A stretch of DNA of 32,000 nucleotides from Candidatus Paracaedimonas acanthamoebae (GTDB taxonomy: Bacteria > Pseudomonadota > Alphaproteobacteria > Caedimonadales > Caedimonadaceae), in NCBI GenBank assembly GCA_000743035.1, contig CP008936.1, positions 330,001-362,000 on the forward strand. Reading direction: 5' to 3'. Below the pieces are notes generated by a model, which was given only the letters and a program-made list of their open reading frames with translations, ran no database searches and was not told the origin of the DNA. Of the stretch, positions 1,598-32,000 are shown in pieces (the first letter of the stretch is position 1; each line of letters opens with the position of its first letter). A program made the translations under genes and the position numbers.

Positions 1598-2696
1598 TTA
1601 CTGTCTCATAGCTTTTTCATAGGCAACCCAAGCTTCGTTTGCGTACTGTTGAATGTACTTAAACGAGATTGTTCCCCGACCATTTCTGCCCCAATCGCGT
1701 CCCCAGCTGTTCTTAAAGAAGAAAACCCCTACATCATCATTATATCCATAGAGGGTAATGGCGTGGCTTCCCACGATGTTTTTTAAGGTGCTAGATATGT
1801 TACCAGACTGTGACCATTCTGCATTCCATTCGACAGGAACACCAATCACAACGGGGACCTTATAACGTGTCATAGCTTTTTTAATGACATCACTTTTATC
1901 AAAAGTACATTTTCCTCCTGTGCAAACTTGTCGTGAGCTTGCAAATAAATTCATAATATTATTGGCACCAAATTTGATCAGTTCGTCTTCTTGTTTGACA
2001 GTGCTTTGGGGAATAACGGCACAGACATTCCACGTTTCTTCATCAGAAACACCTTTATTCATCTTTTTGACGGTCGTGACATATTCATCATAGGGCCACC
2101 ATTTTTGCCCACATAGCACTTCCTATTGTAAGACCATCATTTAAGCAATTCTCGCGCGCTTCAGCTTTTACAATAAGATATGGCTGAGATAACATCCGGT
2201 TATGAAGAAATTTAAGTGCCTCAACAACAGCAAAGCTTGCACAAGTCCCAAGCTCACCTTGATTTTCAACAGAAAGATCCCAGCTAATACCATTTTTCCC
2301 GACAATACTCGCAAGCTTTAATTTTGCTCCTGTGTAAGTCTCAGGTGGTGCCCCAGTATATTTTGTTGCGATATGTGCTGGGGTTTCAGTCAGCCATAAA
2401 GCACATCTTGCAGGATAATAGGGGATTGAATAAGGGACTTCAGTATATTGTGTCGCAGTGTAGTGGTTTTTGGGTTTAAAAGGGCTTTTTGTCACAGGTT
2501 GTGTTTTTGATATGCTCAACCCCTGGAATTGGCGATGATAGTTCTCGTCGGGATATTCCTCATCATAGTAACTACCATAGCGACTACTATGGGCAGAATA
2601 AAAACTGATTAAAGCTAAAACAGCCGTTAAACTTCCTATCTTAAAGAAGTTAAAGCTCTTATGCTTCCATCTATAAAAAGTGTTATTCATGATCAT
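1598..2696 (-). pseudogene. Papain-family (C1) cysteine peptidase with an N-terminal membrane anchor, split by a frameshift
   Basis: ORF 2088-2696 has a good SD (aggagaggg), a TM segment IGSLTAVLALISFY and the Gln/Cys block NQGELGTCASFA. ORF 1598-2119 has the His block GSHAITLYGY and the Asn block KNSWGRDWG. The two frames meet at a T5 run at 2102-2106 (A5 on the coding strand). Removing one A gives the continuous reading ..SAMWAKWWPYDEY.. Confidence 0.8.
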
Positions 2697-3162
2697 TTTC
2701 CCTCTCCTAAAAAGGTTGTTAAAAATGGATGGCTACGAAAAGTAGGGATCCATTCCAGAAGCTAATAAGAAATTTAAATGAGAGGCTATGCGTAAAATTT
2801 TCTTAAGTATCTTGTTTGAGTAAAAATTACCTAAAGACCAAGCACAAAATAGACGTAATTTTTAATTTTTGTTACAAAATATATTGATATTTGTAACTTT
2901 TTGTGATAGTCTATTAATAGATGGTCAGAGATGATTTTTCCTTACTGATGACCCGAGATAAGTCAGTAATCCTTTTACGAAGTCTCTATTCCCATTCAAT
3001 AAAATAATAATAAAGGAATGTAAAAACCTAAATTATTAAATAAATAAGTCCTTTAACGCTCTTTTTGAGCGAATACCCTCTCTTTGTCTGATGAGAAGGG
3101 CAGGAAGAGGCAGGGGATAGGAAGGACTCAGAGGTTTTGGTTTGTCATTCTCTCTTCTCGTT

Positions 3163-3274
3163 TGACATCCTCGGCCTTGTGCCGAGGATGTCAGACAACC
3201 AAAAAGCGCTAAAAGGTGCCAGAAGGTCCTCACTTGTGTAGGAGAGCACGGGCCAGGGTGGAGAGAATGGAATG
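3163..3274 (+). repeat. Module copy X1: 13-bp perfect hairpin plus a short purine-rich leader ending in ATG
   Basis: tgacatcctcggc (3163-3175), loop cttgt, gccgaggatgtca (3181-3193). The following tcagacaaccaaaaagcgctaaaag resembles tcaggcaaccagaggatgctgaaag of X2. It ends in ggtggagagaatggaATG. Confidence 0.6.
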
Positions 3275-3377
3275 ATTTTGGAGTGTGAGGACATAGTTTT
3301 AAGTTTTCTGGGGCAACAAGAGAAGCAACGATTGGTGATAGGGAAGATCCTCAGGTTACTTGAATCTCTTTCTTGTT

Positions 3378-3545
3378 ATTCCCGCGCAGGCGGGGATCCA
3401 GGAAATACTGGAGGATATCGAATGACGATGGGAAAGATCTTTAGGTCGCTCGAGATCCTAGGCACAGGGCCTAGGATGACGAGAGTTGAAGGATTTGTAA
3501 GTCACAGGTGAGGGCTGAGAGAAATGAAAATAAACAAAGAAAGGA
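3378..3545 (+). repeat. Repeat unit A, carrying two hairpins
   Basis: attcccgc-gcag-gcggggat hairpin at 3378-3397. atcctaggc-acagg-gcctaggat hairpin at 3455-3477, followed by gatgac, caggtgagg and gaaaataaa blocks. It aligns with unit B. Confidence 0.75.
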
Positions 3546-3610
3546 GAGGAAAAATGTTGGGAAACAAAAGAATTAAAACTGATGAACTGCAGGGCTCATC
3601 CACCACATGG

Positions 3611-3784
3611 TCATCCTTGGGCTTGTCCCAAGGATCTCAGGCAACCAGAGGATGCTGAAAGTCGCTAGACGATTCCTAACCGGACATGAGAGGCAAGGGG
3701 CAGGGCGAGGAAAGAAGACACAAAGAAATAGATGAAAGTATGAATAACAATGATTAACGATAGAAACAACAGGAGGCAAAAATG
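3611..3784 (+). repeat. Module copy X2: hairpin, leader of about 150 nt, then consensus SD plus ATG
   Basis: atccttggg-cttgt-cccaaggat hairpin at 3614-3636, then ctcaggcaaccagaggatgctgaaa, and an ending aaacaacaggaggcaaaaATG (ATG at 3782-3784). The end blocks are nearly identical to the inverted copy at 31850-32000. Confidence 0.75.
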
Positions 3785-3984
3785 TCAAAAGAACAGGAAC
3801 AAAGAAAAAAGAGTGAGAAACATAGTTACATGCATGAGGGGCGCAGAATCTCAGGGGAAAGCACGAGAGAAGATGTTGATTATCGGAACTTCTTGAATCG
3901 CTGGTAGGACCTGATCTTTAGGAAAGAAGGAAGGCAGAAAAATTGGTAGAAGGCATCGTATATGGTGGTCACCTTCTCTTCTGT

Positions 3985-4150
3985 CACCCCCGAGAAGGCG
4001 GGGATCCAGGGGATAATGGAGGGCATTGAATAGTGACAGAAGAAATCTTGAGGTTTCTTGAGATTCTCGGCACAAGCCTTAGGATGACGCAAACAAAGGA
4101 ACTTGGAACTCACAGGTGAGGTCTGAATGGAACTGAAAATAAATTAAGAA
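3985..4150 (+). repeat. Repeat unit B, a degenerate copy of unit A
   Basis: Shares with unit A the blocks ggcggggatccagg, gagattctcggcacaagccttaggatgacg (a decayed hairpin), cacaggtgaggtctga and gaaaataaa, in the same order and spacing. Confidence 0.75.
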
Positions 4151-4495
4151 AAGAAGAACAAATGAGGAGAAACAAAAGGTTAGAAAACAATAAAAGGGGC
4201 GTGTCATGGGCAAGCATCGTTGGTAAGAAGTGAAGGTTTTCAATAGAGAAAAGCAAGGTGATGAAATAATGATAAAAATTAACAAAGAAAACTGGCTTTA
4301 AAAATGCTCAAACAAGGCATGAAAATTTTGATAATTTTGCATTTTAGACAAATTTTCGTAGGAAATTATTAAATGGAAAATATAATTTATGGACTAGTGA
4401 AAAGCACGCTTTCATTTCTTTGCAAGAAAATATTTTCTTAAATGGCAAAATGTGTTATGGGTGAGTTCGTTTGGTATTGTTCAAAGGAATAGTTT

Positions 4496-5764
4496 ATGAA
4501 GATGTTTTTACATTTTGTTATTTTAGTCCTTTCATTCATATGTGCGAGTGGTTTTAAGGGCCACGCTTCTGCGTTTAGACCTGCCATCATTGAAGAGCGT
4601 GATGATGAGGGATATTTTAAAATGTTTCGAGAAAAACCAGAAGAGTTTACAGGTAGTGCGTTAAAAGCGTTCTTAAAGAGAATAATGGATTTATACCCAA
4701 CAGTAATTGCTTATGATAAAAAAGGACAAAATTTTACTGATACTATTTATAAGCGTTTTTTTAAGGCCGGCGATTATTATTTTACCTTCTTAACCAGACA
4801 TAATTTAATTAATGAGACATTTTTTAATTTAGAAAATGTAACAGTCGAATTTATAGCGAGCTCAAGTTCTGGGCTCCAAACAAAATTACATTATAATATT
4901 TTGTTAGGAGATAATGCGGTTCCCTTCAGCTTTAGGATTCTTTATGTCAGCGAATTTAATAAAAAAATTGCAAGCACCCCTTTGATCCATACTTATCAAA
5001 AAAGTAGAACAATCGAACTTGCGAAGAAGGTTATCTACCATAACTCCACGGTTTCCGGAGATTGGAACAATGCTGTTAAGAAGCAAGCTCAGATAGAGAA
5101 AAAGCGCGCAGAGACGTCTAAAGAAAAAAGTGAAGAAGCTAAAAAAGCAATAGAAGGATATTTCCGCGGTCTTTCAGATTCAACTACGCCGTTATCCTCT
5201 AGTGAATCACAAGTGTCGGCGTCTTCCTCAGCCAGCCCGATTGAGGGACGGCCTTCGATGGTACGTAAGTTTTCAACGCATGACTGGCCCAGGCCAATTG
5301 CTAAAAGCCCGCCTAAAAAGGTTGTTTTTCATACAGCCCCTCAAGCAAAAGAAGGGATAGAGCAACAATATATTCTGCCAAATCTTCCAAATAGTAAAAC
5401 TCTGCAACGAAAGCCCTCAAGAGCTATATTAGAAGAAAAAAAACAGCATGAGAAAAAGTTTAAAACAAAAAAAGATAAAGAAGAGCGTGTTGATTCCATC
5501 GAAAGACGCGCTTCAATAACTGGAAAAAGCATAAGCTCAGGCCTATCTTCTCCTTGGTTAAGCCCAAAAAGAGCCGAGAAGAATCTAAGCCTTAAAAGTG
5601 AGACACTTGCCTTTTTACCTCCGTCGAATACGAATCAAGAATTGGTTCCAGTGGTAGAGAAAGAATCGCTTGAAACTTCATCTAATTCTACGGAAGAAGA
5701 ACCTTATGACATAAGCCAAGCAGACATAGAGGAATTGTTTGAAGATATGCCAGAAAGCGAGTAA
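4496..5764 (+). CDS. Hypothetical secreted protein with a Ser/Lys/Glu-rich low-complexity C-terminal half
   Basis: SD aaggaa lies 8 nt upstream of the ATG. The N-terminus looks like a signal peptide (MKMFLHFVILVLSFICASGFKGHASA). There is no recognisable family motif. A basic cluster KKQHEKKFKTKKDKEER and an acidic tail are present. Confidence 0.7.
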   Translation: MKMFLHFVILVLSFICASGFKGHASAFRPAIIEERDDEGYFKMFREKPEEFTGSALKAFLKRIMDLYPTVIAYDKKGQNFTDTIYKRFFKAGDYYFTFLTRHNLINETFFNLENVTVEFIASSSSGLQTKLHYNILLGDNAVPFSFRILYVSEFNKKIASTPLIHTYQKSRTIELAKKVIYHNSTVSGDWNNAVKKQAQIEKKRAETSKEKSEEAKKAIEGYFRGLSDSTTPLSSSESQVSASSSASPIEGRPSMVRKFSTHDWPRPIAKSPPKKVVFHTAPQAKEGIEQQYILPNLPNSKTLQRKPSRAILEEKKQHEKKFKTKKDKEERVDSIERRASITGKSISSGLSSPWLSPKRAEKNLSLKSETLAFLPPSNTNQELVPVVEKESLETSSNSTEEEPYDISQADIEELFEDMPESE

Positions 5765-30329: not shown

Positions 30330-30354
30330 AAGGCCTCAGGTTTTCTGAGGCCTT
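30330..30354. terminator. Bidirectional rho-independent terminator
   Basis: aaggcctcag (30330-30339), 5-nt loop, ctgaggcctt (30345-30354). It is flanked by an A-run upstream and a T-run downstream, between convergent genes. Confidence 0.75.
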
Positions 30355-30742: not shown

Positions 30743-31852
30743 TTAAGCAAAAGAAGGAGTTGAAGCATCAATGGTCTTTCTTTCTTCTTCCTTTTTTACA
30801 TCTGCTTCTAAAGTGTCATAAGTCGTTTGATACTCTGGGCTTAAGACAACAACCTTTTGTTTAGACACAGAACTCTGTGCAGGCCCAGACCCTGGAGGAG
30901 GAGGTGGTGGTGGTGGCGCAAAGCTAGATGATGGTATAGCTGCTGAGCTAGCGTTCGTCACACTTTGAAGAAGTTGGGAATTTTCTTCTGTTAATTTTTT
31001 AATAACAGCTTCGAGCTTTTGCATTTCCTCATTAGGTTGAGCTTTAATAGTGGAGATTAATTTTTTAAGTTGAGTGGAGTCAGCTGGTTCTAAGATGGCT
31101 TCAATGTTAAAAGTGTAGCTTTGTGCTAAAGGATTGTCACTAGTGAGCCACTTTTTGGCCTGAGTAATAAGTGCTTCATCATACTGAAAAGTAATAACGA
31201 CGCTGTTTTTTTTTAGGTCTGGAAAAGCATCAAGCACATTGAGAATTTGTTTTTTATTCGAGAAAACAGCATATGAGGAAGGGAGCATTGCTTTAAAGGC
31301 TTCTTTTATAGCTTGATCATTTTCCTCTGATTCACCAGGAACCCAAAAACGATAGCTTATACCATTAACAGTCACATGATTTTCTGTTTTTAATCCATTA
31401 AAAGCATTGCAAGCTAAATTATAAGGAGCATACTTTTTGATAATTGCTTGAATCTCTAATTGAGAGTCCACTTGAAGCTGAGAGGCGCTAGAGGAGGGAC
31501 TTTGCTTTTCCTCTTGATCATCACTCGCATACGAAATGCTGGCAAGACTGAGAAAAGCCTTGGTTAAGAGTAGATATTTCTTCATGGTTAAGTGTCCTGC
31601 TAAAGTTAGGGGAATGGACTCTACACATTTTATATTTAGGAAACATTTTTGAACTTTTAAGTGCAATTTTTGACTGTAAGGGTTTGCAGAAAGGCATAAG
31701 TCGTTTATGAGATTCTTCTCATGATTTTCTCCGGAATAGCTTTTTGCACTTGATAATTCTCTTTCTTGTCGCTTTTTAAGTATTAGGTTTTTTCCTGTAA
31801 AAGAACTTCTAATGGCCCCTTTAATTTTCTGATAAATATTCTTATGTAGCAT
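30743..31852 (-). CDS. Hypothetical exported or membrane-anchored protein with a coiled-coil and a polyproline (P8) tract
   Basis: ATG 31852 follows a consensus SD (acaggaggtaaaaATG). The frame stays open for 89 codons before an internal Met at 31585 that begins a classical signal peptide (MKKYLLLTKAFLSLASISYA). It is unresolved whether the product is 369 aa with a signal anchor or 280 aa with a cleaved signal peptide. FAPPPPPPPPGSGP lies near the C-terminus. Confidence 0.7.
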   Translation of the reverse strand: MLHKNIYQKIKGAIRSSFTGKNLILKKRQERELSSAKSYSGENHEKNLINDLCLSANPYSQKLHLKVQKCFLNIKCVESIPLTLAGHLTMKKYLLLTKAFLSLASISYASDDQEEKQSPSSSASQLQVDSQLEIQAIIKKYAPYNLACNAFNGLKTENHVTVNGISYRFWVPGESEENDQAIKEAFKAMLPSSYAVFSNKKQILNVLDAFPDLKKNSVVITFQYDEALITQAKKWLTSDNPLAQSYTFNIEAILEPADSTQLKKLISTIKAQPNEEMQKLEAVIKKLTEENSQLLQSVTNASSAAIPSSSFAPPPPPPPPGSGPAQSSVSKQKVVVLSPEYQTTYDTLEADVKKEEERKTIDASTPSFA

Positions 31853-32000
31853 TTTTACCTCCTGTTGTTTTTTATCTTTGTTCCTTGTTATCCAAACCCT
31901 CATTTACCTCATCATGCTTTCCTTCCTTTCCCCCCATTTGCGCCTCTCACGTACGAGTGATGACTTTTTGGTACTTTTCAGCATCCCTTTGTTGCCTGAG
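31850..32000 (-). repeat. Module copy X3, an inverted copy of X2, running off the window edge
   Basis: The reverse complement reads ctcaggcaacaaagggatgctgaaaag...gtgagaggcg...aaacaacaggaggtaaaaATG, against X2 ctcaggcaaccagaggatgctgaaagt...atgagaggca...aaacaacaggaggcaaaaATG. Both are the same length, about 150 nt, from ctcagg to ATG. The hairpin would lie beyond base 32000. Confidence 0.7.

Follow-up and report, generated by a model that had tools for sequence, protein, structure and literature searches.

What occupies the 1799 nucleotides (nt) at positions 2697-4495 of the window, the 32,000-nt stretch of Candidatus Paracaedimonas acanthamoebae DNA analyzed in this study (contig CP008936.1, positions 330,001 to 362,000)? 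The organism, identified through a protein with 100% identity, is an alphaproteobacterial endosymbiont of Acanthamoeba (Holosporales, Caedimonadaceae), and this gap is the longest part of the window without an open reading frame (ORF) of at least 100 amino acids (aa), the runner-up being 502 nt. Comparison with related sequences indicates that the gap is one member of a dispersed, multi-copy family of units specific to the Ca. Paracaedimonas/Caedibacter lineage (Caedimonadaceae, Holosporales), a dispersal that an initial annotation of this single locus could not see. The reading favored here, with moderate confidence, is that the region is a promoter-led 5' leader in which a structured RNA, called element X, is followed by accumulated repetitive extragenic palindromes (REPs), and that it is transcribed into the next gene. 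As judged from these comparisons, what is new is the placement of a REP array inside a multi-copy, promoter-led leader that begins with an undescribed RNA; the hairpins themselves are known.

The region is non-coding. The initial annotation had described it as the longest non-coding stretch of the window, as A/G-rich on the + strand and as built of repeats that do not encode protein, and all three descriptions hold. Purines make up 64% of the + strand across both 2697-4495 and 3080-4290 and 68% across 3500-4290, compared with 52.5 +/- 4.7% in 300-nt windows over the whole sequence, and the top 15 purine-rich 300-nt windows all fall within 2697-4495. Self-comparison also recovered a real direct repeat of 205 bp, as had been anticipated (3367-3570 against 3975-4178; 72.7% identity over 205 columns, offset 608, E=3e-33), the two copies of which are called module R copies A and B. 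Differences between these copies are spread evenly over the codon positions (12/13/17) and copy B contains an in-frame stop. The ORFs of the two copies share one relative frame, interrupted by that stop, rather than shifting frame between copies as had been claimed. Comparison with the orthologous region of a relative by tblastx gave only short matches to REP hairpins, in all six frames and on both strands. It could be argued that the region is the remnant of one or more decayed coding genes, for instance for Lys/Glu-rich proteins, which would account for the purine bias, because this purine-rich sequence holds several modules resembling a ribosome-binding site (RBS) plus ATG, as well as short ORFs (e.g., 3782-3907), and the neighboring genes are themselves decaying. 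However, the absence of codon-position bias, the in-frame stop and the nature of the tblastx matches contradict this, and the RBS/ATG module belongs to a repeated segment of 5' untranslated region (UTR), not to a coding region; a decayed gene is considered highly improbable. A CsrA-type sponge with many GGA motifs was also rejected, as GGA occurs 33.0 times per kb compared with 29.6 +/- 3.8 in composition-matched shuffles.

The initial annotation had placed the start of the element near 3080, which is too late, since a promoter and a covarying RNA at 2884-3124 lie mostly upstream of that point (Table 1). The arrangement TTGAwA-N14-TGn-TAGnnT of the sigma-70-type promoter is kept in every copy of X and of X2, a variant leader described below, and this conservation suggests that the site works as a promoter. 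The helices predicted for X are supported by two alignments. When 16 copies were aligned with MAFFT, 92.5% of cells were paired, compared with 84.0% in shuffled controls and 32-44% when the partners were slid; 11 pairs had changed on both sides, and 44 double-change cells were counted against 15.7 in the shuffles, a number that 0/500 shuffles reached. When 19 distinct copies were aligned with the covariance model, the corresponding values were 94.7% of cells paired compared with 85.0% (shuffled) and 31-44% (slid), with 13 pairs changed on both sides and 56 double-change cells against 18.6, again reached by 0/500 shuffles. The sequence of helix P1 is almost wholly different between copies, including between the window and its orthologue, and is complementary within each copy. 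The pairs of X include 30 G-U compared with 9 A-C combinations, which indicates that the + strand is the one read as RNA. By the evidence of covariation, X is a structured RNA under selection for pairing. Folded singly, most copies can pair the nearly invariant CU-rich motif of X with a GA-rich stretch immediately after it; an extended helix P4 formed by this pairing is no more than a hint, as the alignment fold shows no common register. Rfam gave no family for X, X2 or the repeat modules L and R at the gathering threshold, and only chance-level matches at E<=10; in eight related loci only tRNA matches were found, and in the window none at all. A 2025 review of the Holosporales makes no mention of such repeats or RNAs. 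X is a candidate for a new, previously undescribed family of structured RNA.

Module L spans about 100 nt and is made up of a hairpin and then CTCAGGCAACCTGAnGATG..TAGGTGCCAGAAGGTCC. A metagenome scan with the L hairpin and its 3' flank recovered 25 loci of 36-44% GC, all of which keep the module, and window positions 2845-3125 match nearly every one of these loci at 65-74% identity, always upstream of L and in the same orientation. Searches with blastn, nhmmer and the covariance model likewise placed X upstream of L and in the same orientation wherever the sequence extends far enough. The covariance model, built from 16 copies, gave 20 X matches of 111-202 bits, representing 19 distinct copies, and these were found only in the Ca. 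Paracaedimonas/Caedibacter lineage; scans of 78 other alphaproteobacterial era loci (1.37 Mb), of the era locus in Caedibacter sp. 37-49 (L069) and of viral contigs yielded no match. X plus L had no match in plasmid and phage collections, and pattern searches of viral contigs gave only chance matches for the L flank and none for X. Some contigs carry two units (L173, with two X copies, and those holding L156 and L165, L160 and L161, and L176 and L177), so the X family is multi-copy within a genome. At L153 (2170-3127) and L159 (1263-284, - strand), two loci of one metagenome, the X promoter region leads into a different transcribed part, the variant leader X2. REP arrays of a similar kind come after it, and the two loci are nearly identical over about 900 nt. 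The two X copies of L173 (4914-5125 and 11157-11368, - strand) lie 6 kb apart, both score 200.3 bits and look near-identical, an indication that a unit was recently duplicated or that gene conversion took place between units.

The idea that arrays begin with X could be checked at a second unit of the window, which lies before IM40_01905 (30743-31852) and is cut by the window end, so that its X is predicted to lie beyond position 32000. Orthologues of IM40_01905 have X upstream in 3/3 relatives. In Caedibacter sp. 38-128 (L178, X 168 bits) and in the metagenome-assembled genome GCA_017307065.1 (L180, X 111 bits) no REPs lie between X and the gene, whereas in Caedibacter sp. 37-49 (L181, X 182 bits) a 1.3-kb array does. 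Because X is kept while the array ranges from 0 to 1.3 kb, X is best described as a conserved promoter-leader and the REP array as an optional, fast-changing insert. The gap itself shows similar differences. The locus is syntenic in Caedibacter sp. 38-128 (L068), where X is 70% identical to that of the window and the L modules 60-72%, compared with about 45% for the rest of the array, which is effectively unalignable. In a third species (L166/L177) X and one L module are kept and the unit ends at a bidirectional terminator. Additionally, window positions 3636-3793 are 71% identical over 166 columns (E=6e-17) to the 5' UTR of 30743-31852 (- strand), RBS and ATG included. The RBS-plus-start module involved, AACAGGAGG followed by 7-9 nt and ATG, occurs at 3767-3784 and 31867-31850 (- strand) of the window and as a tandem duplicate before the L178 gene (5985-6033), and its recurrence indicates that pieces of 5' UTR, including the start codon, have been copied between units.

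Downstream of X, the array of the window consists of modules in the order L, R, L, R at unequal spacings of 447 and 608 nt (Table 1). It had been proposed to contain at least two copies of a unit of about 600 bp, but a tandem-unit model is ruled out by this irregular layout and by Tandem Repeats Finder, which reported no array. A CRISPR array was also rejected, as the hairpins face both ways, their spacing is irregular, the "spacers" are repeats in their own right and no tandem array was reported. The GC-rich stem-loops that had been described do exist, including the perfect 13-bp stem of L copy 1, the attccc..ggggat stem of R copy A and the 9-bp stems of R copy A and L copy 2 in opposite orientation, and the decay reported for the second set of hairpins was confirmed in R copy B. 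The consensus of the main hairpin matches six times in the window, compared with 0.00 expected from shuffles, and all six matches lie inside 2697-4495; GC-rich REP hairpins are absent elsewhere in the 32 kb. Full L modules are all in the X orientation, and L copy 1 can be aligned with 24 other copies. R copy A also holds TCACAGGTGAGG and a purine-rich stretch in which an RBS-like GGAGAGG precedes ATG, and the tail of L copy 2 ends in a mimic of a gene start composed of AGGAGG (3771-3776) and ATG (3782-3784). RNAalifold detected no structure in the L flank besides the hairpin, and a closing helix around that hairpin (6 nt 5' of GTCAT with GAnGAT) was rejected with only 57.5% of cells paired.

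These hairpins have published relatives. According to the survey by Di Nocera, De Gregorio and Rocco (2013, PMC3733652), CGTC-tagged REPs carry a terminal CGTC or TGTC tag and predominate in Alphaproteobacteria, including intracellular ones. Their stems start with AT and are either 8 bp long with a loop of 4 nt or 9 bp long with a loop of 5 nt, they have a short unpaired tail with the consensus CCA, and they form head-to-head dimers and cluster in some hosts; CGTC-1 is identified there with dRS3 of Neisseria and RPE-6 of Rickettsia (the 8-bp type), and CGTC-4 with RPE-4. Most L copies found in this study read ..CGTCATCC.. at the tag and the rest read TGTCATCC or GGTCATCC, with GGTCATCC at 3609 and TGACATCC at 3163 in the window, and hairpin H2 of R copy B reads TGTCACCCCCG. 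Hairpin H1 (ATCCTCGGG-CTTGT-CCCGAGGAT) has a 9-bp stem and a 5-nt loop, and H2 (ATTCCCGC-GAAA-GCGGGAAT) an 8-bp stem and a 4-nt loop. The tail of H2 reads GGGGAT-CCAGG, and that of H1 reads GGAT-CTCAGG or GGAT-CCCAGG, which is CCA-like with one extra base. Head-to-head dimers and clustering are likewise shared with the REPs as published. With sub-families assigned by the text description in that survey, the window hairpins fit the known CGTC REP superfamily and not a new class. The initial annotation was thus right that the hairpins belong to a widespread proteobacterial palindromic class, one whose spurious peptides include ILGTSPRMT and IPAxAGI, but the class is not uncharacterized, having been described as CGTC REPs (PMC3733652). 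An origin in Legionella or Coxiella, guessed from such peptides, was rejected, as the closest genomes are those of Caedibacter and Paracaedimonas. The main hairpin was also located in 67 contigs of IMG/VR, the majority of them high in GC; there it frequently forms inverted pairs, and its stem shows compensatory changes. The hairpin sequence searched as text in the literature gave only unrelated primer matches.

The REPs of this lineage differ from the published ones in where they lie. According to the survey, CGTC REPs lie for the most part downstream of coding regions and are flanked by unidirectional or convergent genes (PMC3733652), whereas all 50 hairpins sampled here are 5' of genes in X/X2 units, each between the X leader and the next gene start; this is a trait of distribution and not of structure. 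A second difference is the conserved flank of about 70 nt in module L, which is lineage-specific. In 242 kb of sequence from the lineage, 50/50 hairpins that match a strict pattern lie within 2.3 kb downstream of an X/X2 promoter, and the other 199 kb contain none. Among loci that were not picked for their hairpins, 10/10 REPs are in X/X2 units.

The next real gene is co-directional with the unit in 13/15 arrangements (binomial p ~0.004). No sense-strand intrinsic terminator was found between X and the gene in 9/10 array-bearing co-directional units, and the remaining one, L157, has a single weak candidate; both convergent units have terminator-like sites. The genes downstream encode TolB, malic enzyme, ribosomal protein S12 (rpsL), H+-pyrophosphatase (H+-PPase), glutamate dehydrogenase and several proteins without a Pfam match, and since these are unrelated, a shared leader of one gene family was ruled out. 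The purine share of the X strand is 0.54-0.64 in 17/17 units and C is its rarest base, a composition that may reflect a long untranslated transcript avoiding Rho.

In the model that follows, the promoter at 2884-2912 would start a + strand RNA, the first ~210 nt of which would fold into X (P0-P3). The RNA would then traverse an untranslated region of about 1.2 kb that is rich in purines, poor in C and dotted with CGTC REPs and, because there is no sense-strand intrinsic terminator, would continue into 4496-5764, making the unit a long promoter-bearing 5' leader. X would be the stable, selected part, whereas the REP array would be dynamic, growing, shrinking and being reshuffled by duplication and recombination among units. 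As a passenger, the array would probably affect RNA stability or processing and promote local recombination. Of the roles that had been suggested for the region, that of a long structured transcript is plausible; the features of a MITE (miniature inverted-repeat transposable element) were not found.

Several points weigh against this model. Promoter firing, read-through to the gene and its extent, Rho avoidance by C-poor composition and a role of the hairpins in stability or processing are all deduced from sequence features. The -10 element is weak compared with the E. coli consensus and matches TATAAT at only 3/6 positions, for which reason the site went unflagged in a generic promoter scan. 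Folded as a single sequence, the window X is not exceptional (z = -1.29), so the structural support for X rests on covariation, and the X copies are related, so the shuffle control overstates significance, though the slid-partner control supports the structure. Purine richness cuts T-runs, so the lack of terminators is partly compositional, and most loci were fetched for the L hairpin, which biases the association counts. Finally, the units of L166 and L161 face a convergent gene and end at terminators, so that a unit can stand alone, and for rpsL in L176 a separate promoter-like site lies downstream of the unit, which means that X is not always the sole promoter.

These last two observations would also suit an explanation in which X is an independent family of small or long non-coding RNA genes, possibly acting in trans through the invariant CU-rich, anti-Shine-Dalgarno-like motif. 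The REPs would then define or protect the 3' end, much as E. coli REPs protect upstream mRNA, and read-through would be incidental. X does have its own promoter and a covarying structure, and AAUGCCCUCUCUUUGCC is nearly invariant. However, co-directional units have no terminator after X or after the first REP, and in L178 and L180 X reaches the RBS of the gene within 45-230 nt with no hairpin between. The strong orientation bias toward downstream genes (13/15) also weighs against it, and the CU-rich motif is not free in single-sequence folds but paired with the neighboring GA-rich stretch. An independent RNA gene family is considered unlikely, and the promoter-led leader is preferred.

[quoted passage not shown] NIME arrays consist of dRS3 and RS elements, with repeat segments of 50-150 bp, syntenic arrays vary in length while adjacent genes diverge, and such arrays were not seen outside Neisseria (Bentley et al. 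2007, PMC1797815). The dRS3 inverted repeat, ATTCCCNNNNNNNNGGGAAT, occurs exactly in arrays of the present family (L161, L162, L164, L167, L169, L173 and others), and H2 of R copy A in the window differs from the dRS3 pattern by one mismatch. Both systems separate ATTCCC-N8-GGGAAT palindromes with families of repeat segments of 50-200 nt, which here are L, R and the tail, and length variation with divergent flanks was found here at two loci in four genomes. Amino-acid identity between the window and Caedibacter sp. 38-128 is 95% for era, 90% for lysE, 87% for rnc, 85% for maf and 84% for rng, and genes two or three positions away from the unit are 84-96% identical, unlike the flanking papain-like peptidase (two ORFs, 72-77%) and the downstream gene p422 (30%; positional counterpart L068 13754-15082). 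In the third species the peptidase is 28% identical and an unrelated convergent gene of 229 aa (L166 2390-3079) stands in place of p422. By these comparisons p422 is hypervariable between species.

Clusters of dRS3-like REPs would, on this explanation, be recombination substrates (for homologous recombination or a site-specific recombinase) that speed the replacement of flanking genes, and transcription would be irrelevant, although the two ideas are compatible. The syntenic array that differs in length and content between species, the divergent flanks and the damage to both window genes beside units all suit it. However, it leaves unexplained the promoter, the covarying X, the G-U/A-C asymmetry, the purine bias and the co-orientation. 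Conserved housekeeping genes (rpsL, H+-PPase, glutamate dehydrogenase) are among the neighbors of units, and the evidence for divergence comes from one locus and few genomes. Furthermore, NIMEs have no known promoter-led structured leader RNA and no reported polarity or strand bias, whereas here all L modules share the orientation of X and two REP types alternate, including H1, unlike in Neisseria. Recombination as the principal function is possible but doubtful, and the leader model is retained.

A third alternative is that the region is a junkyard of selfish mobile DNA without host function, MITE-like or resembling REP doublets (REPINs), formed by repeated insertion at a permissive site followed by decay. 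The dispersed copies, the variable and decaying arrays and the occurrence of the hairpin as inverted pairs in other Alphaproteobacteria, like REP doublets, are consistent with this, and REP classes have been proposed to be mobile (PMC3733652). Yet the survey also states that CGTC REPs have no dedicated transposase. No terminal inverted repeats or target-site duplications bound X, L or the whole unit, the REPs keep to X units instead of being scattered, the evolution of X is purifying and compensatory, and no copies were found in plasmid or phage collections. A MITE was rejected specifically because homology among the L copies tapers off at either end, X has a promoter as its 5' edge and the inverted matches at unit edges are only 12-nt AT-rich pairs at chance level. 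A REPIN with its REP-associated tyrosine transposase (RAYT) was rejected because the tag is CGTC and not GTAG. Selfish DNA is judged improbable as an account of the unit.

The bacterial interspersed mosaic elements (BIMEs) of E. coli, whose palindromic units are transcribed and stabilize upstream RNA, resemble these arrays in being mosaics of palindromic units in alternating orientation with conserved linkers. However, BIMEs are made of GTAG-type REPs tied to RAYT transposases and lie at gene 3' ends or between operon genes, and unlike the arrays described here they are not found in 5' leaders and have no associated leader RNA. The Correia repeat enclosed elements (CREE) of Neisseria share with X that they are dispersed, non-coding and often upstream of genes and that they can supply promoters and processing hairpins, and may thus serve as a functional analogy for a portable promoter plus hairpin. 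They differ in being 100-156 bp, bounded by inverted repeats and thought to be mobilizable, whereas X is without terminal inverted repeats, is kept at orthologous positions in the four genomes compared and has no sequence similarity to CREE. Riboswitches, T-boxes and ROSE/fourU thermometers resemble X in having a conserved, covarying 5' structure before several unrelated genes, and X contains an anti-Shine-Dalgarno-like CU-rich segment beside a GA-rich partner, as in structured leader classes. X is unlike the known classes in that it has no Rfam match, the promoter is part of the conserved unit, the downstream genes have no obvious common pathway and the distance to the start codon reaches 1.5 kb.

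Both genes that adjoin units in the window appear to be damaged. The papain-like cysteine peptidase (PF00112) at 1598-2696 (- strand) is split into overlapping ORFs at 1598-2119 and 2088-2696, whereas its counterpart in Caedibacter sp. 38-128 is one intact gene of 366 aa (L068 10954-12054), so it is probably a frameshift pseudogene. IM40_01905 (- strand) encodes 369 aa compared with 601-637 aa in its orthologues; same-frame homology to P0003 continues past the stop to 30371 with an internal gap of about 97 aa, and this suggests that the gene has decayed or acquired a premature stop. A perfect palindrome, AAGGCCTCAGGTTTTCTGAGGCCTT (30330-30354, 10-bp stem), separates the decayed 3' part of IM40_01905 from the EamA gene; it has no relation to the REP family and is probably a terminator acting in both directions. 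In L169, positions 659-794 are the reverse complement of the peptidase upstream region (window 2697-2833) and lie downstream of an L module, so that the unit there points toward the peptidase gene instead of away; the locus may thus have undergone inversion or reshuffling. A toxin-antitoxin module of the HipBA type (HTH_3, Couple_hipA, HipA_C) lies near the X unit of Caedibacter sp. 38-128 (L178 3070-4567).

Table 1. Features of the 2697-4495 region, the adjoining gene and the second unit (window coordinates).
Feature	Position	Strand	Details
Sigma-70-type promoter (putative)	2884-2912	+	-35 TTGATA 2884-2889; 17-nt spacer; extended -10 TGA 2904-2906; -10 TAGTCT 2907-2912
Element X, candidate structured leader RNA of ~210 nt	2918-3124	+	covariance model 185.8 bits, E=3e-44
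X helix P0	2928-2932 with 2982-2986	+	RNAalifold
X helix P1	2942-2949 with 2962-2969	+	RNAalifold
X helix P2	3006-3010 with 3033-3037; 3014-3016 with 3027-3029	+	RNAalifold
X helix P3	3057-3061 with 3067-3071	+	RNAalifold
Nearly invariant CU-rich motif AAUGCCCUCUCUUUGCC	3074-3088	+	
Possible helix P4	3085-3089 with 3098-3102	+	hint only
Module L copy 1	3162-3250	+	CGTC-type REP hairpin (13-bp stem 3163-3193) and conserved 3' flank; nhmmer 65 bits
Module R copy A	3367-3570	+	H2 3378-3397 (dRS3-like REP) and inverted 9-bp-stem REP H1 3455-3477
Module L copy 2 and purine-rich tail	3609-3793 (L part 3609-3695)	+	hairpin 3613-3635; nhmmer 65 bits
Module R copy B, decayed	3975-4178	+	H2 ~3988-4010; H1 4062-4088
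Purine-rich tail	4179-4290	+	A-rich blocks resemble 3522-3548 and 3787-3813
p422, downstream gene	4496-5764	+	422 aa; hydrophobic N-terminus; no Pfam match above curated cut-off
Second unit, cut by window end	31839-32000	-	L 3' flank, purine-rich tail, AGGAGG, ATG (31852) of IM40_01905

The data presented in this study allow a further, tentative suggestion, that X is a new class of structured, promoter-linked leader marking perhaps dozens of genes in Caedimonadaceae endosymbionts, both housekeeping genes and lineage-specific ones of no known family, that are under common control by some signal or RNA-binding factor, and that it is the sole site of REPs in these genomes. If this is true, there would be a mechanistic link between X and the REPs, such as transfer of arrays by recombination through X homology or targeting of REPs to the transcript, and this would be the first REP family tied to a specific RNA leader. 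REP palindromes are among the commonest and least understood bacterial repeats, and these units would offer a natural system for asking how REP arrays arise and spread without a transposase and what such arrays do to transcripts. The units would also account for a class of spurious "hypothetical proteins" and for long stretches of these genomes that carry no annotation, and X may represent a new family of structured RNA in these amoeba symbionts, a group that has received little study.

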